Source of the DNA: Candidatus Saccharimonadota bacterium
GTDB taxonomy: Bacteria; Patescibacteriota; Saccharimonadia; Saccharimonadales; JAXHNE01
NCBI GenBank assembly: GCA_034520885.1
Contig: JAXHNE010000004.1
Coordinates: 9,983 to 73,982, forward strand
DNA length: 64,000 nt
Direction of reading: 5' to 3'
The translations under genes and the position numbers were made by a program. The notes below the pieces were generated by a model that searched no databases, was not told where the DNA came from, and saw only the letters and a list, made by a program, of their open reading frames with translations. Positions 2-40,282 of this stretch are shown here, in pieces (position 1 is the stretch's first letter; each line of letters opens with the position of its first letter).

Positions 2-487
2 AGGGCAAGTATTGACGCTTTTGCCTCGGCCGCCAATGACGGTCACCTACGAGGAGTCCATGCGATTACCAACCGGAGTGGGGATGGAGGAGCAATGATT
101 GCTGGTCTAGTGTCTGCAGCAATTAATATTTCTATTGAAGGGGTGGAGTCACTTTATGCGTATCCACAAAAAAGATCGGAACGAAAACCGAGCGGGGTAA
201 TGAGTGCGAGAATCCTTGAAAATTTGATCACTATTCGAGGAATTAACCCCGGTAAAAAGGACGAGTCGTTGGCGGTCGCATTCATCGGCGATAAACCGTC
301 CGATATACAAGAAGCGCAACTCATGCATAATGATTTCGGTTTTCCCGTGGTCGGTTTTATGGTTCCCCGTCTTGGGGGCAGCGACCACCCCCTAGATAGA
401 CTTTTTGGAAAGCGAATGAGTGCGAATTCCGTGCGGGAGCAGTTAAGCTCGACGGCGCTTAAACGATACATAAAGGAGGAAGTGTAA
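2..487 (+). CDS. HAD-superfamily phosphatase, 5'-truncated by the window edge (GmhB/histidinol-phosphatase-like)
   Basis: The frame is open from position 2, and the first ATG is at 95. The translation contains TNRSGDG (like the HAD NQSG motif) and FIGDKPSDIQEA (HAD motif III, GDxxxD). The stop overlaps the thrS start at 487. Confidence 0.4.
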   Translation, partial: RASIDAFASAANDGHLRGVHAITNRSGDGGAMIAGLVSAAINISIEGVESLYAYPQKRSERKPSGVMSARILENLITIRGINPGKKDESLAVAFIGDKPSDIQEAQLMHNDFGFPVVGFMVPRLGGSDHPLDRLFGKRMSANSVREQLSSTALKRYIKEEV

Positions 488-2355
488 TGAGTGAAAAACA
501 GGATAAGTTGTATGCAATGCGGCATAGTTTGGCGCATATTATGGCAACCGCCGTTACGCGGCTGTGGCCGAAAGTAAAGCTGGGCGTCGGCCCGGTAGTG
601 GAAACCGGTTTTTACTACGACATCGATCTGGGTGACAAGCACCTTTCGGAGGAAGATTTTGAGAAGATCGAAGCCGAAATGCACAAAATCATCAAGGAAG
701 ACCAACCCTTTGAAAAGTCCGAAAAACCCATAGACGACGCCATTTTATGGGCCAGGGAAAACAACCAACCCTATAAGGAAGAGCTACTAAATGACTTAAA
801 ACGCGAAGGTACTACTCTGGCCAGTGAGCTGGACGCCGCTACCATGGGTATCGGGTTGCCAGCGGGTATTACCGGCGCTACGCCGGCCAAAGCGCGCGTC
901 GGTGACGTGTCGTTTTATACCAACGGTGACTTTACCGATTTGTGCCGCGGGCCGCACGTGGAATCCACCGGAAAAGTCGGTGCTTTTAAATTGATGCGCG
1001 TGGCCGGTGCCTACTGGCGCGGCGATGAAAACAAACCGCAAATGCAGCGACTGTACGGCGTAGCCTTTGATACGCCAAAGGAACTCCGCCAACATCTGGA
1101 TATGCTAGAAGAGGCCAAAAAACGTGACCATCGTAAACTTGGCCAGGAACTGGACTTATTCGTGATATCCGACCTCGTCGGGCCCGGTCTACCGCTGTTT
1201 ACGCCGCGTGGCACCATTTTGCGGGACGAACTCGGCAAATTCACGCAAGAACTTCGATCCGCGAACGGTTTCAAGCGGATCCATACTCCAAGTATCGCCA
1301 AACGAGATCTGTACAAAACCAGCGGGCACTGGGATAAGTTCGGCAACGAACTGTTTTTGGTGACCAGTCAGGAATCCAGCGAGGAGTTCGTGTTGCGCCC
1401 GATGAACTGCCCGCACCATATTCAAATTTATGCCTCCGCGCCGCGAAGCTATAAGGATCTCCCCTTAAAATACATGGAAAATGCCTCTGATTATCGGGAC
1501 GAAAAAACCGGAGAATTACACGGTTTAAGCCGCGTGCGTGCCTTTACGCAAGACGATAGCCACGTATTTGCTCGGGAGGATCAAATAAAAGAGGTGGCGA
1601 CCGAGTTGGTCGAAGCCGCCAATGACATGTATAAACAGCTGGATATGCGGCTTCAGTTTCGTCTGAGTTTCCGGGACGAAAGCGAAGGATATCTGGGCGA
1701 TCCCCGGCTATGGGAGCAAGCCCAAGCCAGGATTGAAGAGCTCGCCCAAGAAAACGATCTGGATTACTTCGTGGAAGAAGGTGAAGCGGCCTTTTACGGT
1801 CCGAAAATCGACTTTTTAGCGACGGATGCTTTGGGTCGACAGTGGCAAGTGGCCACGGTACAGCTGGACTTCGTTCAGCCCAATCGTTTTGAGCTGGAAT
1901 ACGTGAACGAAAAGGGTGAGCCGGCAACTCCCGTAATGATACATTGCGCGCTACTGGGTTCCATTGAGCGCTTTTTGTCCGTGTACATCGAGCATACGGC
2001 CGGAAAGTTTCCGGTTTGGTTAGCTCCGGAACAGGTGCGCATTATTACGGTAAATCAGGAGGATGAAACCATCGCTTTTGCCAACAAAGTGGTTGAGCAA
2101 GCCAATGAATTGGGGTTACGCGTGGAGCTGGATAACTCTCACGAATCGGTCGGCAAAAAAATTAGAAACGCCGAAGTTATGAAGGTGCCTTACACCATTG
2201 TTTTAGGCGAAAAAGAAATTCAGTCCGGCGAAGTCGTGCCCCGCGTTCGCGGCGATATGGAAGTGCAAAAACCGCATGCAGCTCACGAGGTAGAAAAATT
2301 CTTAAAATCCGTCACCAACGAAGCCAAATCCCGCACCACAAAATCCAGCCTATGA
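487..2355 (+). CDS. thrS: threonyl-tRNA synthetase (lacks N-terminal TGS domain)
   Basis: 622 aa. It carries the HxxxH editing motif (MRHSLAHIMATAVTRLWP), the class II core (FRDE, GLSRVRAFTQDDSHVF) and an anticodon-binding C-terminus. It aligns with E. coli ThrRS from residue ~70 onward. Confidence 0.95.
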   Translation: MSEKQDKLYAMRHSLAHIMATAVTRLWPKVKLGVGPVVETGFYYDIDLGDKHLSEEDFEKIEAEMHKIIKEDQPFEKSEKPIDDAILWARENNQPYKEELLNDLKREGTTLASELDAATMGIGLPAGITGATPAKARVGDVSFYTNGDFTDLCRGPHVESTGKVGAFKLMRVAGAYWRGDENKPQMQRLYGVAFDTPKELRQHLDMLEEAKKRDHRKLGQELDLFVISDLVGPGLPLFTPRGTILRDELGKFTQELRSANGFKRIHTPSIAKRDLYKTSGHWDKFGNELFLVTSQESSEEFVLRPMNCPHHIQIYASAPRSYKDLPLKYMENASDYRDEKTGELHGLSRVRAFTQDDSHVFAREDQIKEVATELVEAANDMYKQLDMRLQFRLSFRDESEGYLGDPRLWEQAQARIEELAQENDLDYFVEEGEAAFYGPKIDFLATDALGRQWQVATVQLDFVQPNRFELEYVNEKGEPATPVMIHCALLGSIERFLSVYIEHTAGKFPVWLAPEQVRIITVNQEDETIAFANKVVEQANELGLRVELDNSHESVGKKIRNAEVMKVPYTIVLGEKEIQSGEVVPRVRGDMEVQKPHAAHEVEKFLKSVTNEAKSRTTKSSL

Positions 2356-2630
2356 AAAAACTCAATAACTACTACAAATTAGCAGTCGTTTCGGGAGCCG
2401 CTGTGCTGTTATCCGGCACTTTGCTCATTTTTATTTTTATGGATATGTATAAAATTTCAGACGAAACCCTGAATGCTACGAACGTGGAAAAACGGGTGGC
2501 AAGCGAGAAGCTGGATAATTATCAAACATATACGAGAATTTTAATGCCGGTGATTGGGGTTGCGTTCGTGGCCTTTATCGTTTTTGCGGTTTTGGGTTTT
2601 TATCGTGAACCATCAAATTCGAAAAAGTGA
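2352..2630 (+). CDS. small membrane protein (2 TM), hypothetical
   Basis: 92 aa with two hydrophobic segments. Its start ATGA overlaps the thrS stop. It overlaps the next ORF. Confidence 0.35.
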   Translation: MKKLNNYYKLAVVSGAAVLLSGTLLIFIFMDMYKISDETLNATNVEKRVASEKLDNYQTYTRILMPVIGVAFVAFIVFAVLGFYREPSNSKK

Positions 2631-3744
2631 CTTTCGCAAGGAAGTAGAGATCTTGGTGGCGCGAATTCCCAAAGGGCGGGTGATGACTTACGGGCAGTTG
2701 GCGGCGCTTTGCGGACGGCCGCGGGCAGCCCGAATTGTCGGCGGAATAGCTCACTTTGGCGACCCTGAGTTGCCCTGGCACAGAGTCGTCAACAAACAAG
2801 GCGGACTTGCCAGCGGCTACCCCGGAGGCAAGTTTGCCCACCAGCAACATCTAGAGAGTGAAGGCGTCGAGGTGTCCGATGATTATTGTGTTGACGTAAA
2901 AAAGTTACTATGGCGCCCAGGTGACGTAGAAGCTAGTGCTATGGTGCTAAATTCCAACTTCCAACGTCCAACCCCTAAACCACCTTTGGTGGTTATAGTG
3001 GGGCCGACGGCGAGCGGGAAGTCAGCACTGGGTATGCAGCTGGCTAAGAAGTTTGGCGGAGAAATAATCTGTGCGGATTCACGCACTGTTTACAAAGGCT
3101 TGGATATAGGCACGGCCAAACCGAGCCAAGAAGACCAAGAAACGATACCGCATCACTTACTGGACGTAGTGGATCCCGGCGAATCGTTTAATGTAGTGGA
3201 TTTTAAGCGTTTGGCGAACCAAGCGATTAACGAAATTTCCGCACGAGGTAAGTTGCCGATAATGGTCGGCGGAAGCGGGCTCTACACTGACGCCGTACTT
3301 TTTGATTATGAGTTTTCCGCACCATCGGCTCCACGCGACCCGCAAAATCCCCGGCACCTGCACAAGGAAGCGCCGCGCTCGCGAAAACCGCTTCGCCCCG
3401 ATACGTTAATTATAGGTACGTCCATGGAACGGCACGAGCTGAAAAAACGAATTTCCAAGCGGGTGGAAGGTATGATTGAAGCCGGGCTGGCTGAAGAAGT
3501 AAGATGGCTCGCACAAAAATTCCCCGAGTCAAAAGCACTGCAAGCCCCGGGATACAGAGCGGTTTTACGTTACTTTGAAAACGATATTTCCCTGCAGGAA
3601 GCCAAGAATTTGTTCATCCAAAATGACTACCGGCTCGCTAAGCGGCAAATGACATGGTTCGGGCGTAACGAATATATTCAATGGGCCAAAGACCAGAGGC
3701 AGGCTGTAGAGTTTGCAACAACATTTTTGTACAAATATCGGTAG
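2554..3744 (+). CDS. miaA: single ORF encoding an N-terminal Atl-like alkyltransferase-like DNA-binding domain (PWHRVV, Cys replaced by Trp) fused in frame to tRNA dimethylallyltransferase MiaA
   Basis: The N-terminal part reads IPKGRVMTYGQLAALCGRPRAARIVGGIAHFGDPELPWHRVVN, an MGMT/Atl fold with W in place of the active-site C. From about aa 140 it reads VVIVGPTASGKSALGMQLAKKFGGEIICADSRTVYKGLDIGTAKP...HHLLDVVDP, the MiaA P-loop and DSxQ(V)YxGLDIGTAKP motifs. No stop separates the two parts. The true start is probably GTG ~2608 or ATG 2683. Confidence 0.75.
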   Translation: MGLRSWPLSFLRFWVFIVNHQIRKSDFRKEVEILVARIPKGRVMTYGQLAALCGRPRAARIVGGIAHFGDPELPWHRVVNKQGGLASGYPGGKFAHQQHLESEGVEVSDDYCVDVKKLLWRPGDVEASAMVLNSNFQRPTPKPPLVVIVGPTASGKSALGMQLAKKFGGEIICADSRTVYKGLDIGTAKPSQEDQETIPHHLLDVVDPGESFNVVDFKRLANQAINEISARGKLPIMVGGSGLYTDAVLFDYEFSAPSAPRDPQNPRHLHKEAPRSRKPLRPDTLIIGTSMERHELKKRISKRVEGMIEAGLAEEVRWLAQKFPESKALQAPGYRAVLRYFENDISLQEAKNLFIQNDYRLAKRQMTWFGRNEYIQWAKDQRQAVEFATTFLYKYR

Positions 3745-6630: not shown

Positions 6631-7311
6631 ATGTGGCAGGAGAAAAACCAAAAATTATATAAGAAGTTCACTTTTAAGGACTTTGTTGAGGCGTTGGACT
6701 TTATTAACCGGGTGGGCGCGATGGCCGAGGAACATAGTCATCACCCGACCATCGAAAACACGTTTAACACCGTAGAATTGAAGCTCAGCACTCACGACGC
6801 CGGCGATAAGGTCACCGAAAAAGATAAAAAACTCGCCAAGGCGATTGATGAGCTTTTGCGGGAAGAAGCTGACGAAAAAGAGGAGAGTACCTCTCCCCAT
6901 AACGGAAAAGTCAAACTGTATTGCGATGGCGGATCACGCGGCAACCCCGGACCGTCGGCGGCCGGGTACGTACTGCTGAACAAAGACGACCAGGTGATCC
7001 ATAAAAGCGGGGTATACCTGGGGGTCACGACCAATAATCAGGCGGAATACCAATCTTTAAAATTCGGCCTGGAGGAAGCGCAAAAACAGGGTGCTCACCA
7101 CGTTGACGTATTCATGGACAGCATGCTGGTAGTCAATCAAATGACCGGAAAGTTCAAAATAAAAAATCGTGATCTGTGGCCGATACATCACTCCATTAAG
7201 GAACTAAGCCAGGAATTTAAAAAGGTGAATTATTCCCATGTGCCGCGAGAACTCAATAAACTGGCCGACGCCGAAGTAAACGTCGTACTTGACGCACAAA
7301 AAAACACCTAG
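6631..7311 (+). CDS. rnhA: fusion of pterin-4a-carbinolamine dehydratase (PCD/DCoH)-like domain and RNase HI
   Basis: N-terminus: FKDFVEALDFINRVGAMAEEHSHHPTIENTFNTVELKLSTHDAGDKVTEKD ([E]xHHP...THD, the PCD signature). C-terminus: KLYCDGGSRGNPGPSAAGYVL...TNNQAEYQSLKFGLEEA...DSMLVVNQMTGKFKIKN...VPRELNKLADAEV (RNase H1 DEDD motifs). Confidence 0.75.
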   Translation: MWQEKNQKLYKKFTFKDFVEALDFINRVGAMAEEHSHHPTIENTFNTVELKLSTHDAGDKVTEKDKKLAKAIDELLREEADEKEESTSPHNGKVKLYCDGGSRGNPGPSAAGYVLLNKDDQVIHKSGVYLGVTTNNQAEYQSLKFGLEEAQKQGAHHVDVFMDSMLVVNQMTGKFKIKNRDLWPIHHSIKELSQEFKKVNYSHVPRELNKLADAEVNVVLDAQKNT

Positions 7312-10572: not shown

Positions 10573-10619
10573 TTTTCCACCTCCCGTTTTGCGGAAGTAT
10601 AACATCCATAAAAGTAAAA

Positions 10620-11856
10620 CCCCGCTTTTCTTGCGGGGTTTTAGCTATAAGTTGGTGTGGTTTTTGCTGGTGTTTGATGTTGGTTTCTTTTATGTAACAA
10701 CGGCTTGCGAGAAGCCGTTGTTACAGTAGTCGTTTTTGTTTTTGAGCACTTTTTTTATTCAAGTGCTACCCACATCTTAAACAGCTACAAAACCGCTGTC
10801 AACATGTTTAAGGTTTATTTTTACATTGCCCTGTGTATAACTAGTGAGACTTTGTCTCGCCGCCAAGAAAATTCGGGGTTTGTCCGGGCAAGCGAAAACG
10901 TTTTCTTCATGCAAAAACGCATCAAAAAAACGAAGCGTCCAATTAATGCTTATTGACTGCCTCGTAAAGCGCGTAGGCGGAGTGCTTAGCGAGAATCTCG
11001 ATCTACATACTCGCTAATTTTGGAGGTGATTTCGTGAAGATTGCCAGCGATAATATTTCACGACCATAGCTTGTTGGTTGAGACAAGAGCGCCAATGCGA
11101 AAAAAAATCAAAAACCGACCATAAGTTCGCGAACTCCGTGTACCCGAAAGCTCATAGCCCTGAAAGCCCGAATCCACATAAGCATAACTAGTATTATGCG
11201 GTCATAAAACGATTTTCCCGCATGAGAGATGACTCGGATATTACCTTAAAAGGGTTCATCATAATGAACAATCCCGTAAAAGGTAATAAAAAACTAGCTC
11301 AAGCAGACAGGACGGGTTCATAAAATCTGTTCGTCGTGACCTCGTAATGCTGTAGCGTTTCTTCCGTTGCTTAGTGTCCTTTCGAAACACATATGATCGC
11401 GATACGCGTAAAACTCATAAAACGAACACGCTTTAGCTATGAAGAGTCGCCTTAAAATGGCGTTTTAAGGCGAAAAAAACCGTCATTTTAGCGTTCGAAA
11501 AATCACGCATGACGGGGCACTAATAGGAATTACCAAAAAGAAGGAAAAGACGAGCAACGATAACAAAAACACTTCGGATAGTTAACTAAAATGTACGACA
11601 TAAATTATTTTACTTACAACAATATTAATCGTGCATATAAAACGTAATCTATAATACTAAGGTGTAAATTATTTTAATTACAACAAAAGATTATTGACAA
11701 ATGTGATCTAAAAATGTATCTTACCATCAGTAAGTTGAAACAAAAACTTACCCGACGGCTCAAAATTAAGCCGATATCGCTCTCGTTTGAGAGCGGTCAG
11801 TCAAGCCACGGACGGCAAGCGCTACAAAGTCATTCACAAAGAGCGGATTTGCCGTC
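10620..11856. other. ~1.2 kb AT-rich non-coding region (no ORF >85 aa) with several hairpins
   Basis: GC content drops visibly. There is a hairpin plus T-run at 10700-10745 (taacaacggc ttgcgagaa gccgttgtta cagtagtcgtttttgtttttg). Other hairpins are at 11455-11480. Confidence 0.6.
11694..11722 (+). promoter_or_regulatory. candidate promoter (TTGACA-17-TATCTT) in the AT-rich region
   Basis: ttgaca aatgtgatctaaaaatg tatctt. A transcript from here would end at the terminator 11873-11905. Confidence 0.35.
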
Positions 11857-11872
11857 TTGGCACTAAATAAAC

Positions 11873-11905
11873 ACCCTACGAAACCAGTAGGGTATTTTTA
11901 TTTTG
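11873..11905 (+). terminator. rho-independent terminator
   Basis: accctac gaaaccag tagggt followed by atttttatttt. It lies inside the annotated 5' end of ORF 11857, so that gene probably starts at ATG 11926. Confidence 0.6.
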
Positions 11906-11925
11906 TAGCGTACACTTTAAGCAAT

Positions 11926-12273
11926 ATGCGTCGTATTTTAGGCAAAATTGGCATTTTTCTCAGCATCGCCCTGGTGCTTATTTTCTTCCTGTTTAACACC
12001 AACCCGAACCAACTTCCGCTCTTGTTGCTGTTCGTGCCATTTATTTTGGTGTATGTCTTGATGCTGCTTTTTTTTCACGAGATCGCCCGGCTATTTTTAA
12101 GGAATCTCGGCCAACACCAACGTCGCTGGATAGTCGGTTTTATCGCCTTATTGCCGGTCGGCTTGTTGCTTACGATGTCCGCCGGACAAACCGAAGCGAA
12201 CGACATCGTTTTGTTCGTGATATTCATGGCGTTGGTCATTTTTTACTTTAGCCGAATAAACTTCCTAAAATAA
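11926..12273 (+). CDS. small polytopic membrane protein (3-4 TM), hypothetical; first gene of the T4SS-like cluster
   Basis: MRRILGKIGIFLSIALVLIFFLF... with several hydrophobic helices. It may be a VirB3-like component, but the fold is not recognisable by eye. Confidence 0.4.
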   Translation: MRRILGKIGIFLSIALVLIFFLFNTNPNQLPLLLLFVPFILVYVLMLLFFHEIARLFLRNLGQHQRRWIVGFIALLPVGLLLTMSAGQTEANDIVLFVIFMALVIFYFSRINFLK

Positions 12274-12301
12274 CGGAAGATTTTTTGATATACTAACAGA
12301 G

Positions 12302-12712
12302 ATGAATCAAGAGAAGATGCCTTCAGACCAATCAAGTGAGTTGCCGCCTCCGGTCGAGCGGCAAGCAAGTTACGTCAACGAGCGGGAGTCGGCCAAAAAA
12401 GTCGAACAAGGCACTGTTGGCAGTTCGATGTCCGCTGCACCCCAGTCAAACGATTCGGGGTCACAAGCTGTGCAGGGTACTCCGCCCTCCTCTCAACAAC
12501 CGGCTCAACAACAAGCGACCAGGCAGGTAGTGACACCGCACATTGCCGACGATGAAGACTTGATTGAGAAAGAGTGGATAGAGAGCGCCAAACGTATCGT
12601 CGCACAAACCAAGGGCGATCCCCACGCGCAATCAGAGGGTATAGGAGCAATAAAAAATGATTACAAAAAGAAGCGATTCAATATTGATAACAACGTAAGC
12701 CAAGGGGAGTAG
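12302..12712 (+). CDS. Pro/Gln/Ser-rich low-complexity protein, hypothetical
   Basis: 136 aa. Its stop is immediately before the ATPase ATG at 12714. Confidence 0.4.
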   Translation: MNQEKMPSDQSSELPPPVERQASYVNERESAKKVEQGTVGSSMSAAPQSNDSGSQAVQGTPPSSQQPAQQQATRQVVTPHIADDEDLIEKEWIESAKRIVAQTKGDPHAQSEGIGAIKNDYKKKRFNIDNNVSQGE

Positions 12713-12713
12713 C

Positions 12714-15650
12714 ATGTTGGTGAGTATAATCCTCGGCTTTTTATTCGTACTCCTTCTGGGGTTGCCTCCGGCATTTATCATTGCCCGAAAATCACTCCGG
12801 GAACAGAAGAACTTTGAACGCGGCCTTAAAATGGTGCCGCTAAAAATACATTTACCGCCACAAAGTGATGATGCGGAAGCTGGCGGGCGGGACACGCGTG
12901 ACGTAATTGATGAAAATATCTCCAAGGCGCAGATTATGTACAACATCGTTGCCGGAACGGCGCACCAGGGCTTCATGAATAAGTTTTTTTACGGGCAACG
13001 CCACATTTCCTTTGAGATCGTGGGCGTAGGAGGGTTCGTAGAGTTTTATACCGCCGTCCCGGTTTCGCTGGTAGAGGTAGTAAAACAAGCAGTGGTGAGC
13101 GCCTATCCTTCCGCGCAGCTAGAAGAAGTTCCGGAGTATAATTTATTTTCCTCGGTTGGGAAGATTAGCGGAACTGCCGGCGGGGAGCTCACCTTAAAAG
13201 AAAACGCCGCCTACCCGATTGCGACCTATCAAGACTTGAAACGTGATGCCCTACAATCCATGTTAAGTTCGTTATCTACCATTAATGATAACGATGGCGT
13301 GGGTATTCAATTTTTGATGCGCCCGGCGCATAGCGATTGGCGCAAAGAAGCTTCGGCCATTGCCAGTCAAAAACGAAAAGGAGAGAAAAAAGGTGGCGGC
13401 CCGGAGAAAGCTCTGGGATGGGTTAACCAGGCTTTCCGCGCCTTGACCGCACCTCCGGAAGAAGGAGGAGGTGGTGACAAACCGGAGCTTTCCAATGCCG
13501 ACCAAGCGGTTATTGATTCCATTGATGCCAAAACGCAACATCCCGGATTCGAGGTGATTATTCGTGTGGTAGCCTCTTCGGACGTATCACAGCGGGCACA
13601 AACAATAGTAAAAAACGTAGTTGCGGCTTTCGCATTATTCGATTCCCAAGGGAAGAATGGGTTTAAGTATACCCCGGCCAAGGATATCGAATCTTTCGTG
13701 ACGGCTTACATTATGCGATTCTTCCCGCAAGAAAACGACAAAAACGTTCTTAATACGGTGGAGCTTTCCACGCTATTTCACTTTCCGGACGAAAAGAATA
13801 TTCCAACGTCCCAGTTACAACGACAGGCCTCCAAGCAAGTCGATGGCCCGCGCAATATGAGTGAAGACGGAATGTTGCTCGGCTACAATCTGTTTCGTGG
13901 TGCCAAAAAACCGATTCGTTTGGCTCACGAAGATCGACAGCGCCACTTGTACGCGGTCGGGCAGACCGGTACCGGTAAGTCCACGTTTTTGGAGAACATG
14001 GCCCTGCAAGACATGCTGGCGGGGAATGGGCTGGCATTCGTGGATCCCCACGGTGATACCGCCGAAAAACTCCTCTCCATGGTGCCAAAAGAGCGCACCG
14101 AAGACGTGCTGTACTTCTGCCCGGCGGATATGGATTACCCCATGGGTCTCAATTTGTTCGAATACGTTGATGAATACCAAAAAGACTTCATTATCCAGGA
14201 ATGCATAAACATGCTGTACAAACTGTATGACCCGCAGCGCCAGGGAATTATCGGGCCGCGTTTTGAGCGCATTTTTACCAACTGCGCCCAGCTCTTGATG
14301 GCCGATCCGAACGGCGGCACCTTCGTTGATGTACCCAAGCTGTTAATTGACCCGCAGTTCATGAAGGAAAAGCTTAAGTACACCAAAGATCAAAACGTAT
14401 TGGACTTCTGGACGAAAGAGTGGCCGAACGCCCAACGCTCCCAGGACGCCGGTGAGGTGACCAGTTGGGTAGTAAGTAAGTTCGGAGCTTTCTTGAGTAA
14501 CGAGATGATGCGCAACATTATCGGCCAAAACAAGAGTTCCTTTAATTTGCGCGATATCATGGACAATAAAAAGATATTACTGGTTAATCTGAGCAAAGGG
14601 CGTACCGGTGATATAAATTCCCGATTACTGGGAATGATCTTCGTTATGAAGTTCCAGGCCGCGGCCATGAGTCGTTCGGACGTTCCGGAAAGCGAACGCG
14701 TTGATTTTGGGCTTTACGTGGATGAGTTCCAGAGTTTCTCCACCGACTCTTTCGCCACTATTATGTCCGAAGCCCGAAAGTATCGGCTGAGTCTGATCGT
14801 AGCCAACCAATTTACCACCCAGCTTACCGAGGAAATTCGCGATGCTGTCTTCGGTAATATTGGTACTATCGTGTCCTTCCGAGTGGGGCAAAATGACGTG
14901 GAAACGCTGGCTCGCTACTTCCAGCCGACATTTGACGGCGAAGATTTATTACGAATCCCCAACCACAACGCGGTGGTGAGGACTTTGGTGAACGGCGTCC
15001 CGACGGCGCCATTCAGCATGGCTACCATTCCGCCACTCGGAGAGCCCAACAAAGAGCTCTTCCTGGCATTACGGCAACTATCCGCCGCTAAGTACGGCCG
15101 TCCGAAAGCGAAGGTCGAGGCCGAAGTATTCGAACGGCTGGCTACCAAAGATTCACCGAAACCCGGGGTTGGTCAGTCCGGTATGTCTCCCGGCGGAGGT
15201 GGCTTAAAACCCGGAGCGGCTCGCAAGCGTCCGGGCTCCGGCCCATCATCGTTCCTGGATGATTGGTTAGCCAAGCGCAAAGCGGCACCGTCACCGTCCG
15301 GGGCGCCGACCGCAGCAACCAAAGCGAGTCCGCAGCAACCAGGAGGCCCTTCGAGCGGGCCCGCAGCGCCAAAGCAGCCTTCTTCCGCCCCACCGCAAAC
15401 GACTCCATCACCGGCATCCTCGTCGTCACCTCAAGCGGGCGCGGGGAGTGCTACCGGCCAACAAGCTTCGCCACCACCGACTCAGCCAAACCGAACCGAG
15501 CCGCAAAAAGCGTCATCTAACGAAACGCCGCCCCCTGCTAAAAAGACGGAAGGCGAGCTACATGTCCATAAAGACGACGGCACGGACGAAGACACTATCA
15601 CTATCGACAAAGATGGCACTTTGCACCGGGTCGGTGAATCGCAAGAATAA
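12714..15650 (+). CDS. type IV secretion/conjugation-type P-loop ATPase (VirB4/TrbE- or VirD4/TraG-like) with N-terminal TM anchor and long Pro/Ser/Ala-rich C-terminal tail
   Basis: It has an N-terminal TM helix. Walker A: AVGQTGTGKSTFLENMA...FVDPHGD. Walker B: GLYVDEFQSF. It has the EARKYRLSLIVANQFTTQL motif, typical of VirB4/VirD4/HerA-FtsK-like secretion ATPases. The C-terminal ~180 aa are disordered and PSA-rich. Confidence 0.7.
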   Translation: MLVSIILGFLFVLLLGLPPAFIIARKSLREQKNFERGLKMVPLKIHLPPQSDDAEAGGRDTRDVIDENISKAQIMYNIVAGTAHQGFMNKFFYGQRHISFEIVGVGGFVEFYTAVPVSLVEVVKQAVVSAYPSAQLEEVPEYNLFSSVGKISGTAGGELTLKENAAYPIATYQDLKRDALQSMLSSLSTINDNDGVGIQFLMRPAHSDWRKEASAIASQKRKGEKKGGGPEKALGWVNQAFRALTAPPEEGGGGDKPELSNADQAVIDSIDAKTQHPGFEVIIRVVASSDVSQRAQTIVKNVVAAFALFDSQGKNGFKYTPAKDIESFVTAYIMRFFPQENDKNVLNTVELSTLFHFPDEKNIPTSQLQRQASKQVDGPRNMSEDGMLLGYNLFRGAKKPIRLAHEDRQRHLYAVGQTGTGKSTFLENMALQDMLAGNGLAFVDPHGDTAEKLLSMVPKERTEDVLYFCPADMDYPMGLNLFEYVDEYQKDFIIQECINMLYKLYDPQRQGIIGPRFERIFTNCAQLLMADPNGGTFVDVPKLLIDPQFMKEKLKYTKDQNVLDFWTKEWPNAQRSQDAGEVTSWVVSKFGAFLSNEMMRNIIGQNKSSFNLRDIMDNKKILLVNLSKGRTGDINSRLLGMIFVMKFQAAAMSRSDVPESERVDFGLYVDEFQSFSTDSFATIMSEARKYRLSLIVANQFTTQLTEEIRDAVFGNIGTIVSFRVGQNDVETLARYFQPTFDGEDLLRIPNHNAVVRTLVNGVPTAPFSMATIPPLGEPNKELFLALRQLSAAKYGRPKAKVEAEVFERLATKDSPKPGVGQSGMSPGGGGLKPGAARKRPGSGPSSFLDDWLAKRKAAPSPSGAPTAATKASPQQPGGPSSGPAAPKQPSSAPPQTTPSPASSSSPQAGAGSATGQQASPPPTQPNRTEPQKASSNETPPPAKKTEGELHVHKDDGTDEDTITIDKDGTLHRVGESQE

Positions 15651-15652
15651 TC

Positions 15653-16216
15653 TCAGCCGCGCCGTTTTTTAGCGCGCACCAACACCTCGAATAATAACCC
15701 GCCAACGAAGCCGGCGGCGTAGAGCAATATAAAGAGTGTGTAATTGTACTGGAATCCGTAGTGTTTAGCGAAGTACAAAACCGTGATTGACCCCGCAAGC
15801 GCAATTAAACCGCCGCCAAGTACGCCGGACGGTCGAGCTATCGTTTTGCCCGCGGCATTGCTGATAGTTTCCACGCTTTTTTGGTGAACGACCTTGCTAA
15901 AGGCGCGTTGGGTGGGAGATAACCGCGAACGTACGTTTTTCATGGTTTTCTTGTAGCCTTCACGTTTTAGGTCGCCTTGGTGGTAAGCGGGGGGAGACTT
16001 AGTTTCTTGGGAGTTTAGCGGGGTATGTTCACGAGTTTCGGCAGTGCTTTCAACTTGTTCGCGCAGTGCTTCGATTTGTTCTTCGTTGGTTTCTTTTTCT
16101 TGTTCCGCCAGTTGTTTTACGCGCTCAATATTCTTCTTTGATTGTTCCGCGGAATCTACGTCGACTTCCGGTGTGGATTGTCGTTCGGGTGATTGTGGTG
16201 AGAGTCGTTCGCCCAT
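15653..16216 (-). CDS. coiled-coil protein with two C-terminal TM helices, hypothetical
   Basis: It has an E/Q/K-rich N-terminus and GLIALAGSITVLYF...LFILLYAAGFVGGLLF. It is convergent with the ATPase gene and overlaps the stop of the LPXTG gene. Confidence 0.45.
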   Translation of the reverse strand: MGERLSPQSPERQSTPEVDVDSAEQSKKNIERVKQLAEQEKETNEEQIEALREQVESTAETREHTPLNSQETKSPPAYHQGDLKREGYKKTMKNVRSRLSPTQRAFSKVVHQKSVETISNAAGKTIARPSGVLGGGLIALAGSITVLYFAKHYGFQYNYTLFILLYAAGFVGGLLFEVLVRAKKRRG

Positions 16217-17646
16217 TATTGTCCTCCGTTCGCGTAGTCCAGTCGGATGATCTGGGTTTCTTTACGCAGTAAATGCGCCCGTGCCAGGAAATATCCTACG
16301 AAAATAGTGACTGCCGTGGCAACGAGCATGCTTTCGCCCGGGCCGGTTTGCGGAAGAGTTCTCGTGGCGGTCTCGACCGTTTTGTTCACGGAGCGCGGCA
16401 CTTCAATATTTACGGAGTTTCCATAGAACGTATTATTCATGACCAGATCATAAGCAGTCGGATCAGAGGTGGATATAGGAGTTTCGGGGATCGGATCCTT
16501 AATCTCAACGGTGATAGTTTTTTGCACGGTTCGTCCGGGAGCTATGGTTTCTTCCGGCCAAACAATAACGTCATCGTCATTGATCTCGCCGCCGCTACGA
16601 TCAGTGATAGTGGCGTAGTGTAGGATGTCGCTGACATCTTCCTTTATGGTAAAGTCCGGCACCTCGACTTTGCCATCATTCTTAACACTTAAAGTGTATA
16701 CAATGCGATCGCCGGGTTGTGCCGTAGTACCGTTCGCATCATCAATATCTTGCGTAAGATTGCTGGCAGCCTTATCCAACTTTAGGCAAGTTTCTACGTT
16801 GTTAACTTCATCCGCTTCGGGGCAAGGATAACATTCTTCTTGGGTACTTTGGGTGCCAGGAATGTTGGGACACACGTCACAATCTTCGAAATTATACTGT
16901 ACCCCCTCTACGGCGGGACACACGTCACATTCTTCGACCGATGTTTGCACCCCGTTCTTGTTGGGACACACGTCACATTCATTAGTAGATTCTTGTACTC
17001 CGGGATCTGCCGGACAAGCATCTTCCGGCTCCGGCGGTGGAGGAGGCGGCGGTGGCGGTGGTGAGTACTTTCCGTCCGTCACGATATTGCCACAGTTGTA
17101 TAAGACAAAAACGGTATCACCGTGTTTGTTTGTCATTTTTAGTACTTTATAAGTGGAGTGACTGCCGCTATCGAATGCCCACAAGTTCCGCATGAAATAG
17201 GTAGTGTTTGCGATACTCACCGGATACTCGTCAGTTTGTTTACCGGTGCGCGTGACTACTGATCCACGACTTTCGCGTCCCATGGAGTCCAGCTGCTTGT
17301 TGTAGTCAGTCGACTTAATCCAAACGGTTTCTGCCTTTCCCAAGGTGCCGCAGTCAACTCCGTAGTATGAGAGGATTCTCTGAAAATCCCGGGTTTCATC
17401 CAGGCACATCAACCAAGCCTGGGTACGCGTATCGAATCCGCCATGGATAATATCGTTACTGGAGGCCGCCAGCGTTGGTTCCGGCGGGGAAATAACCGCG
17501 AACAACTGTACGAACATGCTCAGCACCACCATAACGACGCCGAGTCGGCGGAGTTTTTCTTCTTGCTTCAGCCGCCCGTAATAAAAAGCGATTTCGCCCA
17601 GAATACTGGGGTTGAAGGGAAGGTTGCTGACAAGTTTTCGAAACAT
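16216..17646 (-). CDS. LPXTG-anchored surface protein with signal/TM N-terminus, poly-proline tract, four ECDVCP repeats and a DUF11-like repeat domain
   Basis: It has an N-terminal hydrophobic segment (VVMVVLSMFVQLFAVISPP). It contains SPPPPPPPPPPEPED and 4x (E/N)ECDVCPxxxGVQ. DRIVYTLSVKNDGKVEVPDFTIKEDVSD matches the DUF11 conserved repeat. The C-terminus is LPQTG plus a hydrophobic stretch plus RKETQ, a sortase sorting signal. Confidence 0.7.
   Translation of the reverse strand: MFRKLVSNLPFNPSILGEIAFYYGRLKQEEKLRRLGVVMVVLSMFVQLFAVISPPEPTLAASSNDIIHGGFDTRTQAWLMCLDETRDFQRILSYYGVDCGTLGKAETVWIKSTDYNKQLDSMGRESRGSVVTRTGKQTDEYPVSIANTTYFMRNLWAFDSGSHSTYKVLKMTNKHGDTVFVLYNCGNIVTDGKYSPPPPPPPPPPEPEDACPADPGVQESTNECDVCPNKNGVQTSVEECDVCPAVEGVQYNFEDCDVCPNIPGTQSTQEECYPCPEADEVNNVETCLKLDKAASNLTQDIDDANGTTAQPGDRIVYTLSVKNDGKVEVPDFTIKEDVSDILHYATITDRSGGEINDDDVIVWPEETIAPGRTVQKTITVEIKDPIPETPISTSDPTAYDLVMNNTFYGNSVNIEVPRSVNKTVETATRTLPQTGPGESMLVATAVTIFVGYFLARAHLLRKETQIIRLDYANGGQ
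16855..17000. repeat. tandem ~55-60 bp DNA repeats (gggacacacgtcaca...) encoding the ECDVCP motif repeats
   Basis: Three near-identical copies of gggacacacgtcaca(t/a)tc are spaced ~57 bp apart. The adjacent GC-rich tract ggtggaggaggcggcggtggcggtggtg encodes poly-Pro. Confidence 0.8.
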
Positions 17647-22542: not shown

Positions 22543-23202
22543 GGTACGAGTCTCTTGGTGGACTGGCTATGAGTCTGTCTTCAAAAATCTTGCGAGAATT
22601 TTTGACCACCCAAGAGAAGCCAACATGAACCTTCACACTTTAGACTCAGACGCAATTTCTTTCGCGTAGCACAGCGAGGCGTACTTCCTGTACGGCGAGC
22701 GAGCAACACAGAAAAAATTGTGTATGAGGCAAAGAGCAATCACGGGTTTCTGGCTATGCCAGAAAGCAGGAGATTGTGCTGTGAAGTTCAGGTTTGTTAA
22801 AAATTTATGTACGTGCCAATCACAACGCCAATACCACCCGTCAGAGCACTTCTGGTCTCGTAACAGGAGCTAAAGGATTTTCGTTTGGAGTTCTAATTCT
22901 TCAAGCCGCGATTCACTTACGGAATGTTTTAAATACTTAAAACAGTAACAGGTCTAACTTTGAGCGAAAGAATTGCCCCGTCATACGACAGGGCTTCAAA
23001 AATTCGCTTCGCTCATTTTGAAGCAAGTTCGAAGCTGATCCAACGAGAGGGCGATCCGTTCTCACCGAGCCCCGCCATACGACAAGGCCTCAAAAAAACG
23101 TTTCGCGGACTCATCATTTTTTGAAGAAGTTTGATCCCGGCTCAGGACTGAACGCTGTGCTGGACGTGCCTAAGACAGTGCGGAAGTCGTAGCGGCAGCG
23201 AG

Positions 23203-23312
23203 TTCCTCTCTGTGGTTCGGAACATAGTTAATAGTTAAGAAGTAATAGATAAGAAATTCAAAAATCTCACCTATTATCTATCATCTATATATTCCGAGCT
23301 AGAGAGAGGAAT
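23203..23312 (+). other. AT-rich ~110 nt insertion in 16S V1 flanked by inverted repeat ttcctctct/agagagaggaa
   Basis: It is absent from the E. coli-type helix 6 region. It contains agttaatagttaag and atctatcatctat motifs. Confidence 0.7.
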
Positions 23313-23423
23313 GTCGGCGAGCGGCGGACGGCTGAGTAACACGTAGGAACGTACCCCAAACTGAGGGATAAGCACCAGAAATGGTGTCTAATACCACATG
23401 TGGTGCGTCTCGCATAGGCGAGA

Positions 23424-23498
23424 CAATAGTTAATAGGAAAGTAGTTAATAGGTAAGAATTCAACCGAATATCATCTATCATCTATCAACTATCAATCT
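23424..23498 (+). other. AT-rich ~75 nt insertion in 16S V2 sharing agttaatag / atcatctatc motifs with the V1 insertion
   Basis: caatagttaataggaaagtagttaataggtaagaattcaaccgaatatcatctatcatctatcaactatcaatctg. Confidence 0.7.
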
Positions 23499-23638
23499 GA
23501 TTGGCGCTTCGCTCGCGCGAGGCGCATCAAAGCTTCGGCGGTTTGGGAACGGCCTGCGCAATGCATCAAAGCTTGTCGGCGAGGTAACGGCTTACCAAGG
23601 CGACGATCATTAGCTGGTCTGAGAGGATGATCAGCCAG

Positions 23639-23682
<44 letters not shown>

Positions 23683-24077
23683 AGGGAATTTTCCACAATG
23701 GACGAAAGTCTGATGGAGCAACGCCGCGTGCAGGATGAAGGCTTTCGGGTCGTAAACTGCTTTTAATAGTGAAGATTTTTGACGGTAGCTATTGAATAAG
23801 GATCGGCTAACTCCGTGCCAGCAGCCGCGGTCATACGGAGGATCCAAGCGTTATCCGGAATTACTGGGCGTAAAGAGTTGCGTAGGTGGCATCGTAAGTT
23901 GGTAGTGAAAGCGTGAGGCTCAACCTCATACCCATTATCAAAACTGCGACGCTAGAGGACGAGAGAGGTCGCTGGAATTGCTAGTGTAGGAGTGAAATCC
24001 GTAGATATTAGCAGGAACACCGATGGCGTAGGCAGGCGACTGGCTCGCTCCTGACACTAAGGCACGAAAGCGTGGGT

Positions 24078-24111
<34 letters not shown>

Positions 24112-24214
24112 CGTAAACGATGGATGCTGGCTGTAAGAAGTATCGACCCTTCTTGTAGCGAAGCTAACGCGTTAAGCATCCCGCCTGTGGAGTACGGCCG
24201 CAAGGCTAAAACAT

Positions 24215-24250
<36 letters not shown>

Positions 24251-24354
24251 GTGTTGTTTAATTCGATGGTAAGCGAAGAACCTTACCCAGGTTTGACATT
24301 CCGATTGAAGGACTCCGAAACGGACTGGTCTTCTTGAGCCGTGGTGACAGGTGT

Positions 24355-24401
<47 letters not shown>

Positions 24402-24687
24402 TCAACGAGCGCAACCCTTATAGTTAGTTGGATTTTTCTAGCTAGACTGCCCTGGTAACAGGGAGGAAGGAGGGGATGATGTCAGGTCAGTATTACCCTT
24501 ATGCCTGGGGCTAGAAACACGCTACAATGGCCGGTACAAAGGGCTGCCAAGTCGCGAGACGGAGCAAATCCCATCAAAGCCGGTCCCAGTTCGGATAGCA
24601 GGCTGAAATTCGCCTGCTTGAAGCCGGAATCGCTAGTAACGGTGAGTCAGAACATGAACCGCGGAACAGGTTCCCGGGTCTTGTACA

Positions 24688-25511
24688 AAATAAATGCGCC
24701 TGGCAGCGCATTGGACTAGGTGGTGAAAATCCACTTCCGCTATCCAGCGGATAGCTGAGAGCAGGGCATCTCTGGTAACAGAATGCCCGAAGGGCTCAAT
24801 ACGCAAAAGATAGTCTTAAATATCCGTTTGACAACGGAAGCTCGTAGCGATCTATGATATGTGTACCATAGGGAAGCTACCAAGAAAGAGTGTTTAGGAA
24901 TGTCCGAAACAGCCCAATGTGTGACCCAGGGAGATCCTATAGCCGAAGTAATCGCGCCTTTTAAGTAAGGCTAGGCAATAGGAAGTCAGCTGAGTTCGTA
25001 GTAGTACATGTAGTAAAATACATATATAAAGGAACGAACTTCGTGCTGAATCCGCATTACATTGTTGGTTTTGTTGATGGAGAGGGATGTTTTAGCATCA
25101 CTATCAATAAAAACGGCAACGGGTTACCGGAAGTTCGACTCATTTTCGAGATTGAACTTCGGGAAGATGATGAACCAATCTTGCATGAAATTAGTAAAGT
25201 TCTAGATTGCGGCAGTATTTACCGCTTAGAATACGAAAGGTATGCCAAATGGCGACCCCACGTAAAGCTAAAAATCAGTAACTTTAAGGGCATTTCAACC
25301 AAGATAATTCCATTTTTCCAACGGTATCCGCTTCAGGCTAAGAAGCGTTTGCAGTTTGAAAAGTTTTGCCAAGTAGCAGAGCTTATTAAAGCCAAACGGC
25401 ATCTTACACCTGAAGGAGTAGAGCAGATTCAAGCCTTAAGGCACGAAGACTCGCGTAGTGCGTTAGACGCGCACGCTACGTGGGGAGCAACAGAGATTAA
25501 CTGATTGCAAT
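24688..25511 (+). mobile_element. intron (group I-like) in 16S rRNA at the E. coli ~1391 position, carrying a LAGLIDADG homing endonuclease ORF
   Basis: Joining the flanks restores the universal CTTGTACACACCGCCCGTCA. Candidate P7 strands GGACUAGG ... AAGAUAGUC are present. The ORF occupies the 3' half. Exact boundaries are +/- a few nt. Confidence 0.8.
25043..25504 (+). CDS. LAGLIDADG-family homing endonuclease (intron-encoded)
   Basis: 153 aa. IVGFVDGEGCFSITI is the LAGLIDADG motif. It is a single-motif, homodimer-type enzyme. Confidence 0.85.
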   Translation: MLNPHYIVGFVDGEGCFSITINKNGNGLPEVRLIFEIELREDDEPILHEISKVLDCGSIYRLEYERYAKWRPHVKLKISNFKGISTKIIPFFQRYPLQAKKRLQFEKFCQVAELIKAKRHLTPEGVEQIQALRHEDSRSALDAHATWGATEIN

Positions 25512-35095: not shown

Positions 35096-35171
35096 TGGTG
35101 GGCGACCCAGGATTTGAACCTGGGACCTCTTCATTATCAGTGAAGCGCTCTAACCACTGAGCTAGCCGCCC
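35096..35171 (-). tRNA. tRNA-Ile (anticodon GAT)
   Basis: Minus strand: GGGCGGC/TA/GCTC-AGTGGTTA-GAGC/G/CTTCA-CTGATAA-TGAAG/AGGTC/CCAGG-TTCAAAT-CCTGG/GTCGCCC/A-CCA. Confidence 0.9.
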
Positions 35172-35227
35172 GCGTACTTTATTGTCTTCTTTCGCTAGGG
35201 CCTGCCATACGTAGCCTTGGCGAAGTA

Positions 35228-35304
35228 TGGTGGAGCGTCGGGGACTCGAACCCCGGACCCCCTGCTTGCAAAGCAGGTGCTCTAGCCAACTGAGCTAACG
35301 CCCC
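35228..35304 (-). tRNA. tRNA-Ala (anticodon TGC), G3:U70 present
   Basis: Minus strand: GGGGCGT/TA/GCTC-AGTTGGCTA-GAGC/A/CCTGC-TTTGCAA-GCAGG/GGGTC/CGGGG-TTCGAGT-CCCCG/ACGCTCC/A-CCA. Acceptor pair 3 is G:U, the alanine identity element. Confidence 0.9.
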
Positions 35305-38239: not shown

Positions 38240-38400
38240 AGTAACGAAATAGGAAACAAGCACGAAACAAGAAATAAGAAGCACGAAACAAGAAATAAGA
38301 AGCACGAAACCGAAGGGTTTAAAGTTTCTGATTTCAGATTTCAGATTTGTTTCAAATTTCAAAATTTCGGATTTCAGATTTGCTGATGCGGAGCATCAGG
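38240..38400. repeat. tandem repeats inside a 23S expansion segment: (aagcacgaaacaagaaataag)x2-3 then (atttcagattt) units
   Basis: caagcacgaaacaagaaataagaagcacgaaacaagaaataagaagcacgaaaccgaagg ... tttctgatttcagatttcagatttgtttcaaatttcaaaatttcggatttcagatttgctg. The two halves are mutually complementary (long hairpin). Confidence 0.75.

Positions 38401-40250: not shown

Positions 40251-40282
<32 letters not shown>

Follow-up and report, generated by a model that had tools for sequence, protein, structure and literature searches.

A 64,000-nucleotide (nt) stretch of the genome of a Saccharibacterium (Saccharimonadales; contig JAXHNE010000004.1, forward strand, positions 9,983 to 73,982; hereafter the window, with positions counted from its first letter) contains, between comM and the gyrase genes, a five-gene locus whose central product is a 978-amino-acid (aa) ATPase. 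This ATPase is best described, from sequence matches and predicted structure, as a type IV coupling protein (T4CP)-type motor that carries a putative VirB4-type N-terminal domain and its own transmembrane (TM) anchor. The forward-strand unit to which it belongs, consisting of a leader RNA and genes for a 4-TM protein, a small acidic protein, and the ATPase, is most likely a core Saccharibacteria operon encoding a domesticated T4CP-type translocation motor, and the two genes that converge on it encode a separate adhesin pair. We regard the identity and architecture of the ATPase, taken jointly with the separation of the adhesin pair, as reasonably probable.

Patescibacteria, the Saccharibacteria included, live in dependence on a host cell. 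The ATPase is a membrane-anchored member of the T4CP family, is conserved nearly to the level of gyrase, and has its syntenic counterpart in the set of 61 class I essential genes reported for the one species that is genetically tractable. Databases and one survey already record the gene family and its occurrence in Patescibacteria. New here are the connection to a class I essential gene, hitherto overlooked, with a small partner that is itself essential, the predicted VirB4-like fold of domain DUF8128, the phage and mobile-element relatives associated with Replic_Relax, and the leader RNA.

Architecture and classification of the ATPase

The ATPase is 100% identical to an NCBI entry, 'ATP-binding protein [Candidatus Saccharibacteria bacterium]'. 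A first-pass annotation of the window, made from the sequence alone, had proposed a TM-anchored P-loop ATPase with FVDPHGD, YVDEFQSF, and EARKY motifs, and this is confirmed, with a single TM helix at the N terminus (Table 1). The NTPase motifs are intact, with both Walker A and Walker B present, and residues G416, K422, D670, and E671 are invariant among 51 diverse homologues, the set from which our family profile was built; the N-terminal TM helix is present in 50 of the 51. The Pro/Ser/Ala-rich tail that had been noted is also there, with Gly as a further common residue, although it is 168 aa long and not 180. Its terminal motif is kept in most of the 60 orthologue C termini inspected, and the linker preceding it varies in length and sequence. 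Some close homologues reach 1,400 to 2,000 aa and hence have very long tails (P0123-P0131, P0235, P0260, and P0270).

An AlphaFold2 (AF2) model of residues 1 to 810 (predicted local distance difference test score [pLDDT], 90.3; predicted template modelling score [pTM], 0.81) has a long N-terminal helix spanning aa 2 to 38, an alpha/beta N-domain, a RecA-like core, and an all-helical insertion at aa ~487 to 603, in which seven helices lie between core strands at the place where TrwB carries its all-alpha domain. The N-domain corresponds to DUF8128, for which a literature search found nothing; among the closest relatives with other N termini, a response-regulator receiver domain or TPR repeats replace it.

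By sequence, the ATPase domain lies on the VirD4/TraG/TrwB branch. The best NCBIfam matches are VirD4-like CD1115 (3e-10), SXT TraD (9e-9), and TrbC (7e-7), and the NCBIfam VirB4 and HerA models reach E values of only ~0.05 to 0.09, with those for VirB4 at ~0.06. Searches of the PDB by sequence with the ATPase alone match solely TrwB and DotL, and the 51-sequence profile recovers TrwB (1.6e-8), DotL (1e-6), and HerA (1e-3). Among the 51 homologues, Pfam reports TraG-D_C in 49, TrwB_AAD_bind in 48 (best, 3e-13), and T4SS-DNA_transf in 28 (best, 1e-15), together with AAA_10 in 8, P-loop_TraG in 1, and CagE_TrbE_VirB in none. FtsK/SpoIIIE identity was rejected, as FtsK_SpoIIIE does not match the window ATPase and matches 10 of the 51 homologues, all weakly. 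Membership of HerA has no better standing, with weak matches confined to the P-loop core, an N-domain predicted to be VirB4-like and not a HAS barrel, and no NurA-like neighbor among the window open reading frames (ORFs) scanned with Pfam.

Structural comparison agrees for the motor and adds a second affinity. A Foldseek search of the PDB with the ATPase model places R388 TrwK/VirB4 first over the full length (E value, 3e-14; ~900 columns; template modelling score [TM-score], ~0.3) and TrwB second (6e-12; target TM-score, 0.60), followed by Cag-beta, HerA, and DotL; TrwB, Cag-beta, and DotL match the C-terminal domain, and VirB4 matches overall. To explain the top rank of VirB4, the N-domain (aa 36 to 380) was modelled alone (AF2 pLDDT, 84; pTM, 0.82), and the top 14 Foldseek matches in the PDB are then all R388 TrwK/VirB4 entries (E values, 1.3e-6 to 3.7e-4; probability, 1.0; TM-scores, 0.42 to 0.46), after which there is a sharp fall to unrelated folds (next E value, 6.6e-3). 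The ATPase domain is therefore of the T4CP type by both sequence and fold, and is neither FtsK nor HerA. The earlier description of a VirB4/VirD4-like ATPase holds for the T4CP/VirD4-like domain and for the predicted VirB4-like N-terminal fold, and fails where VirB4 sequence models are concerned.

The likeness to TrwB/VirD4-type T4CPs extends to an FtsK/HerA-superfamily NTPase with Walker A and Walker B, a predicted all-helical insertion, an N-terminal membrane anchor, and a TraG-D_C-type region, and TrwB, Cag-beta, and DotL provide both the best sequence matches and the best fold matches for the C-terminal domain. However, the window ATPase has one TM helix where canonical T4CPs have two, ~345 extra residues (DUF8128) between the anchor and the NTPase, and a long disordered tail ending in a terminal motif; it is also chromosomal, core, and, judged by its counterpart, essential, with no relaxase or type IV secretion system (T4SS) gene nearby. 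With TrwK/VirB4 of the R388 inner-membrane complex it shares a two-domain plan, and the predicted fold of its N-domain matches that of the VirB4 N-domain only. Nonetheless, VirB4 hidden Markov models fail on it, its ATPase domain is nearer to T4CPs, it has its own TM helix, and no recognizable VirB3-like gene is adjacent. The VirB4 N-terminal domain docks that ATPase onto membrane subunits.

Conservation, synteny, and essentiality of the locus

We compared the locus across 80 species-representative genomes that hold the 80 best related loci, apparently all of them from Saccharibacteria or unclassified Patescibacteria metagenome-assembled genomes, with three records bearing other names. The order infC(-), comM(-), a gap of 1.2 to 2 kb, membrane protein(+), acidic protein(+), ATPase(+), gyrB(+), gyrA(+) is invariant in these 80 species. 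ATPase identity across loci is 57 to 77% (median, 62%), compared with 63 to 83% for gyrB and a median of 55% for ComM. In a more distant lineage with a 42%-identical ATPase, gyrB and gyrA still follow the ATPase gene, and a 149-aa protein with the same C-terminal motif as the 136-aa acidic protein precedes it; no DUF11 gene, small 4-TM gene, or leader RNA is found there. Because this lineage keeps just the small acidic protein and the ATPase, these two form the conserved core of the locus.

This part of the chromosome is syntenic, belongs to the core, and has a native composition. The tetranucleotide composition of positions 11926 to 17646, which might have been atypical had this been an island, is typical of the window (distance, 0.0125 versus 0.0124 ± 0.0022 for other segments; rank 16 of 59), and an origin as an island or by horizontal transfer was rejected on the grounds of native composition, universal synteny, and the lack of an integrase, none of which was found in the window. 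No relaxase or VirB component was detected by Pfam scans of the 25 large ORFs in the window, as the first-pass annotation had said, and its view that this is not a conjugative element also stands. Presence at this position without secretion partners, which goes against the first-pass reading, is largely the rule among the relatives examined, all of which are presumed epibionts and not free-living bacteria.

The essentiality data come from transposon insertion sequencing (Tn-seq) of Southlakia epibionticum ML1 (Wang et al. 2023, Tables S1 and S2; PMC10633639; GenBank BioProject PRJNA957798), the source of all the ML1 gene calls below (ES, essential; GD, growth defect; NE, nonessential). Genes SEML1_0140 to SEML1_0144 have the gene order, strands, sizes, and annotations of the five window genes and lie between YifB/ComM and gyrB-gyrA. 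The ATPase gene SEML1_0142 is called ES/ES/ES and is one of the 61 ML1 genes of class I, defined as ES at the first time point; 11 insertions survive in SEML1_0142; its small upstream partner SEML1_0141 (420 bp, +) is called GD/ES/ES and is essential, and SEML1_0140 (354 bp, +), at the position of the 4-TM gene, has a growth-defect call (NE/GD/GD). The convergent genes SEML1_0143 (582 bp, -) and SEML1_0144 (DUF11; 1608 bp, -) are both NE, as is SEML1_0138 (YifB), and gyrB (SEML1_0145) and gyrA (SEML1_0146) are ES/ES/ES and GD/ES/ES, respectively. SEML1_0142 is flagged there as a core and Patescibacteria-enriched family, with no domain assigned to residues 71 to 380, and the locus is absent from the text of that paper. 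The ML1 T4SS is encoded by SEML1_0006 to SEML1_0019, next to dnaA, and has no recognizable coupling or relaxase proteins according to its authors; the SEML1_0142 locus lies ~130 kb away.

ML1 has a second T4CP-like gene, SEML1_0293 (PF10412), which is nonessential. A survey of 3,035 Patescibacteria genomes (Quinonero-Coronel et al. 2025; PMC12102498) counted 5,713 VirD4-like homologues in 2,918 of them, mostly far from virB4, found VirB4 in 2,417, and gives 'the t4cp homologue' of ML1 as nonessential. This published nonessential t4cp appears to correspond to the paralogue SEML1_0293 and not to SEML1_0142; the literature discusses just the nonessential paralogue of the ATPase.

Small upstream proteins and the leader RNA

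The two genes ahead of the ATPase encode, as first described, a polytopic membrane protein and a P/Q-rich protein. The former has four hydrophobic segments predicted to span the membrane, and an ORF of ~110 to 130 aa with three or four TM segments occupies this position in 70 of 78 loci. Its start is most likely the ATG at 11926, as the alternative TTG at 11857 falls inside a conserved RNA (below). Searches with 30 orthologues gave no Pfam or PDB signal, including to VirB3/PrgI or any known small transporter. The small acidic protein, present in 77 of 81 loci, has no TM segment; it consists of a disordered, variable N-terminal half and a conserved C-terminal helical motif with the consensus ADDxDLIEKEWVxKAKxIVxxTKxDPxxQ...KADYxKKRYNKDIK. 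It belongs to no Pfam family, and a homology search gave just 15 close relatives, none in a named family. Its stop codon is separated from the ATPase gene by a 1-nt spacer, with a GGGGAG ribosome-binding site, and in most loci the stop lies -3 to +24 nt from the first ATPase residue aligned by tblastn, an arrangement that directly supports translational coupling of the two genes as predicted from their sequences. An ORF of 116 to 150 aa often lies directly upstream of the ATPase in other lineages too. A T4CP-family ATPase encoded with a small partner recalls Cag-beta and CagZ (PDB 8dol), Cag-beta being among the structural matches of the ATPase, but the small acidic protein has no sequence similarity to CagZ, and the parallel is one of analogy only.

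The gap upstream of these genes (10606-11925) had been read as an AT-rich noncoding stretch. It is AT-rich (39.6% GC versus 48.6% for the window), but it holds two conserved promoter/leader elements, A and B, that are far better conserved than the flanking proteins. Element B, on the strand of the ATPase operon, comprises two hairpins, the 5' one (CGCUC...GAGCG) around a variable stem and the 3' one long, with an invariant GGUCAGUC linker between them. Its nucleotide identity is 75 to 93% across ~50 species, and RNAalifold predicts 22 pairs, 13 of them with compensatory changes. In the alignment, 96.5% of cells are paired, compared with 29 to 50% in slid controls, and 17 of the 22 pairs show double changes; the strand is fixed by a G-U pair that 74 of 77 sequences retain. 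With a covariance model, each of 75 related loci yields a single copy, on the forward strand upstream of the 4-TM gene, with its 3' end ~12 to 185 nt (mostly 20 to 95 nt) before the first ORF, and a hairpin and T-run comparable to the terminator-like one in the window lies 3' of the element in at least 30 of 67 related loci. Neither the element nor the gap has a credible match in Rfam 15 at gathering or permissive thresholds, and a literature search for Saccharibacteria RNA motifs returned nothing relevant.

From its sequence and position, element B could act as an attenuator of the riboswitch-like kind or, equally, as a small RNA in its own right. The covariance model finds no copy in six more distant loci, and since the element is confined to the clade with the 4-TM gene, it may control that gene rather than the ATPase. 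In its layout, with a promoter, a structured RNA, and a terminator ahead of the gene for a small membrane protein, the region resembles small exporters under riboswitch control. We know of almost no regulatory RNA classes in the Patescibacteria phylum, for which element B is a candidate.

Relatives in phages and mobile elements

The ATPase family is large, with 5,517 cluster representatives at E values of ≤1e-30, many of them full length at 31 to 42% identity. Elsewhere its chromosomal neighbors are housekeeping genes (ScpA-ScpB, FtsE-FtsX, S20/SMC_N, and also SMC_N/DivIC), and relatives occur in IMG/VR contigs as well. The sole related locus with a T4SS gene is a distant one from outside Saccharibacteria, on a metagenomic contig (L090, 3987-10470), where a 34%-identical member lies just upstream of a Replic_Relax (PF13814) gene and downstream of Tad-like genes, a VirB4-like ATPase (AAA_10/P-loop_TraG), and an M23 peptidase. 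A T4CP takes this position in a transfer module, and L090 is a probable mobile element.

Full-length homologues are also present in Bacillus phage G, SPO1-like phages, Geobacillus phages, and a Microcystis phage, with 49 phage records in total, and the 'VirD4 component-like' proteins of SPO1-like phages and phage G (phrog_5156) match over the full length at 3e-87. The 906-aa homologue of Bacillus phage SP8 (L086, 2770-8280) is collinear with the window ATPase at 21% identity over 756 aa (E value, 3e-27), and collinear homology, N-domain included, extends to the SPO1-like and phage G proteins and the L090 member. The SP8 gene overlaps a Replic_Relax gene, and an Alp7A-like actin gene lies ~1 kb upstream, with three small ORFs between; the Replic_Relax proteins of SP8 and L090 are 31% identical. 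The phage proteins differ from the Saccharibacteria ATPase in lacking a TM helix and in being followed by a Replic_Relax gene, which the Saccharibacteria locus does not have. The DUF8128 family is a T4CP branch tied to DNA-handling proteins in mobile elements and fixed in the Patescibacteria chromosome without them.

Possible roles of the motor

A plausible working model for the domesticated motor is that the one N-terminal helix would anchor the ATPase in the cytoplasmic membrane, where the cytoplasmic DUF8128 domain may act as a docking module, as in VirB4. The protein may assemble as a ring or hexamer, as TrwB does, and use NTP to drive translocation or unfolding at the membrane; the small acidic protein perhaps serves as adaptor or regulator in the manner of CagZ for Cag-beta. 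The terminal motif of the disordered tail probably recruits a partner, and the leader RNA may have a regulatory role.

To our knowledge, no T4SS had been shown to be essential to the organism that encodes it before that of Patescibacteria. Our leading suggestion, which we put forward tentatively, is that the ATPase feeds or energizes this separately encoded, relaxase-less T4SS of these epibionts. We rate T4SS coupling as the likeliest role because the ML1 T4SS has no coupling protein, because the two are both essential and lineage enriched, and because one relative lies beside VirB4. The T4SS cluster of these epibionts has no recognized coupling protein, and the ATPase is the best candidate for that motor; a VirB4-like N-domain would suggest docking on VirB3-, VirB6-, or TrsD-like subunits, with adaptor binding through the small partner and the C-terminal motif.

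Several observations weigh against this description of the protein and its role. The window ATPase scores under the curated family cutoffs (TraG-D_C, 21.2 versus 22 bits; NCBIfam CD1115, 39.5 versus 250; SXT_TraD, 34 versus 366), a further difference from TrwB/VirD4-type T4CPs, and since it does so we class it, from its sequence, as a divergent member of the T4CP family. The case for a VirB4-like N-domain comes from fold prediction and Foldseek (TM-scores of ~0.45) and is not supported by sequence profiles: the N-domain profile gave just spurious designed-repeat matches in the PDB, and hhalign of the N-domain against one VirB4-like protein gave nothing. The correspondence of the window ATPase to SEML1_0142 is a matter of synteny only, drawn from gene order, strand, size, and annotation, and most ML1 T4SS genes are of class II, as opposed to class I for the ATPase. 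Neither the window, nor the 80 Saccharibacteria loci, nor four other lineages have a T4SS gene close to the ATPase. Because T4CP homologues occur in 2,918 genomes and VirB4 in 2,417, many Patescibacteria genomes may have the ATPase without a T4SS. Finally, homologues occur in lytic Bacillus phages, which need no T4SS, and those homologues have no TM helix.

Some of these points fit better with a stand-alone membrane translocase, a second FtsK/TraB-like motor whose task would be to move or segregate DNA (or some other polymer), for example in budding division of the epibiont. We consider this the main alternative, somewhat less probable than coupling to the T4SS. In its favor, the ATPase is never linked to T4SS genes in chromosomal loci and is commoner than VirB4, and its neighbors recur among topology and division genes, with gyrB-gyrA in two lineages and ScpA-ScpB, FtsE-FtsX, and SMC_N/DivIC in others. 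The phage homologues have an Alp7A-like segregation actin on one side and a DNA-binding Replic_Relax protein on the other, and class I essentiality is shared with information-processing genes. However, the context signal is weak, as tiny genomes put housekeeping genes beside almost anything, and no DNA-binding domain (FtsK gamma or winged helix-turn-helix) was detected in the ATPase family by Pfam scans. The mobile-element member has VirB4 for a partner, which would be expected of a true T4CP, and ML1 already has a canonical essential FtsK (SEML1_0096), which also led us to reject replacement of FtsK. If it does act alone, the ATPase represents a new essential translocase in bacteria with reduced genomes.

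A wider evolutionary scenario, which we offer as an improbable one, is that the DUF8128 ATPases are an ancient branch, intermediate between VirB4 and VirD4, with a VirB4-type N-domain and a VirD4-type motor. In Patescibacteria this branch would have been exapted as an essential, near-universal motor that, with the acidic adaptor, powers uptake or exchange of host macromolecules via a pilus-bearing T4SS or without it, gated in Saccharibacteria by a riboswitch-like leader, and in mobile elements and phages its partner would be Replic_Relax. A VirB4-like N-domain would in any case bear on how VirB4 and VirD4 diverged.

The convergent surface-protein genes and other readings of the locus

The two convergent genes encode, as had been described, a coiled-coil membrane protein and a sortase-substrate adhesin. 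The 187-aa protein has an N-terminal coiled-coil/charged region and two C-terminal TM helices. After an N-terminal TM/signal anchor, the 476-aa protein runs from a conserved N-domain through a variable middle to a C-terminal part that is again conserved; it carries DUF11 (PF01345) at 31.2 bits against a cutoff of 24.6, four CxxCP repeats, and an LPQTG signal. Outside the window and its closest relatives, where the CxxCP repeats are chiefly found, there are scattered single copies. Of 56 DUF11 orthologues, 42 have LPxT[GAS], and the rest have IPNTG-, LVNTG-, or LTNTG-type variants. The C terminus of the DUF11 protein (16219-16356; orthologues, L002-L081) consists of LPxTG-PG, a TM helix, and then a conserved tail of ~25 aa, ARSRLLxKELDIVRxEY..GG, which is much longer than the basic tail that closes an ordinary sortase signal. 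No sortase gene is present in the window, and ML1 has two sortases (PMC10633639).

The DUF11 stop codon overlaps the start of the 187-aa gene by 1 nt, so the two genes form their own operon, and because they are convergent to the ATPase operon they constitute a separate transcription unit. Among 66 loci with both the ATPase and gyrB, both genes are present in 47 and neither in 19, with no locus having a single gene; in 11 of the 19 loci lacking them, gyrB begins ~90 to 170 nt after the ATPase gene. We found no functional tie between the pair and the ATPase. The pair is an independent, fast-evolving, dispensable surface module, inserted in a lineage-specific manner between the ATPase and gyrB.

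The first-pass annotation had seen all five genes as one secretion/adhesion module, a minimal T4SS-like host-interaction cluster that exports or displays the LPXTG/DUF11 adhesin. The genes are adjacent, the convergent stop codons are 2 nt apart, the arrangement recurs in those 47 loci, and the long conserved cytoplasmic tail of the adhesin could touch a cytoplasmic partner. We nonetheless think a single module very unlikely. The two units are convergently transcribed and have opposite essentiality in ML1, and the pair is missing both from the 19 loci and from distant lineages that keep the ATPase and its small partner. Median identity is 36% for the 187-aa protein and 42% for the DUF11 protein, compared with 62% for the ATPase. 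The adhesin has its own N-terminal TM/signal segment and sortase-type signal, for which Sec plus sortase suffices. VirB4, VirB6, VirB8, and pilin genes are all lacking at the ATPase locus, the ML1 T4SS is encoded separately, and the adhesin pair is dispensable.

Still less credible is a mobile-element remnant or cargo, or an antiphage defense ATPase of the HerA or MADS mad8 type, as the phage and IMG/VR relatives, including the full-length phrog_5156 match, a PADLOC mad8 match (3.7e-14), and weak HerA matches are outweighed by the fixed position in 80 species, native composition, high conservation, and essential ML1 counterpart, by the lack of an integrase, tRNA flank, or partner defense genes, and by the restriction of the mad8 match to the generic P-loop core.

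Other features of the window

Element A, in the same gap on the reverse strand (~10615-10842), is about 90% identical across species and looks like a leader for the comM-infC-rpmI-rplT unit, with its own predicted promoter and terminator-like hairpin (Table 1); it is kept in loci without comM. By analogy with the L20 leader, it may act by attenuation. A chromosomal origin (oriC) in the gap was rejected, as there is one perfect DnaA box, no cluster, and a cumulative GC skew that rises without a turn; DnaA-box near-matches in the window number 43, compared with 48 expected.

Table 1. Positions of genes, protein domains and motifs, and noncoding elements in the window
Feature	nt	aa	Strand	Basis or remark
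Element A terminator-like hairpin	10643-10615		-	Just before comM ATG at 10605
Element A hairpins	10693-10725 and ~10752-10776		-	Alignment; near-invariant, occasional compensatory changes
Element A promoter, TTGACA-17 nt-TAAGAT	-35 at 10802, -10 at 10774		-	Consensus scan
Lone DnaA-box-like TTATACACA	10832-10840			Upstream of element A promoter
Putative sigma-70-like promoter, TTGACA-17-TATCTT	11694-11722		+	Consensus scan, 10/12 matches
Element B, structured RNA	11776-11866		+	Covariation, covariance model
Intrinsic-terminator-like hairpin and T-run	11873-11905		+	Between element B and first ORF
4-TM membrane protein	11926-12273	115 aa	+	Syntenic with SEML1_0140
Small acidic P/Q-rich protein	12302-12712	136 aa	+	Syntenic with SEML1_0141
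Helical motif of small acidic protein	12545-12694	82-131	+	Orthologue consensus
Membrane-anchored T4CP-family ATPase	12714-15650	978 aa	+	Syntenic with SEML1_0142
ATPase N-terminal TM helix	12726-12782	5-23	+	Hydropathy, 2.69
ATPase N-terminal domain, Pfam DUF8128 (PF26449)	12819-13853	36-380	+	PF26449 precomputed for orthologues
T4CP-like NTPase domain	13854-15143	381-810	+	Motifs, TrwB matches, AF2
Walker A, GQTGTGKS	13959-13982	416-423	+	Motif scan
FVDPHGD motif		442-448	+	ATPase sequence
Walker B within YVDEFQSF	14715-14738	668-675	+	Motif scan
EARKY motif		686-690	+	ATPase sequence
Disordered P/S/G/A-rich C-terminal tail	15144-15647	168 aa	+	Composition
Terminal tail motif, GEL.V...EDTIxIDkDGxLH	15552-15626	947-971	+	Orthologue C termini
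Coiled-coil/2-TM protein	15653-16216	187 aa	-	Syntenic with SEML1_0143
DUF11-LPXTG surface protein	16216-17646	476 aa	-	Syntenic with SEML1_0144
LPQTG	16342-16356	431-435	-	Followed by TM helix (aa 439-457) and RAHLLRK
Four CxxCP repeats, 16-aa period	16819-16977		-	476-aa protein
Poly-Pro linker, 9-residue run	17035-17061		-	476-aa protein

Beyond the five-gene locus, the gene content of the window is housekeeping throughout, with genes for ThrRS, MiaA, RNase H, RNase P RNA, infC-rpmI-rplT, ComM/YifB, gyrB, gyrA, 16S, 23S, and 5S rRNA, S1, IF-2, Fmt, PriA, and ribonucleotide reductase. The 16S (23118-24735) and 23S (37144-41107) rRNA genes are 12 kb apart, with protein-coding genes between them, as well as tRNA-Ile and tRNA-Ala on the opposite strand (35096-35304). 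Just past the 16S gene are a weak match to a group II intron D1-D4 (24953-25034) and a LAGLIDADG endonuclease ORF (25043-25504). The 23S match covers 3,964 nt compared with a 2,925-nt model, which implies an insertion of ~1 kb. Two ORFs are apparent fusions, one joining a methylguanine-methyltransferase DNA-binding domain to MiaA (IPP transferase; 2554-3744) and the other a pterin-4a-carbinolamine dehydratase to RNase H (6631-7311).

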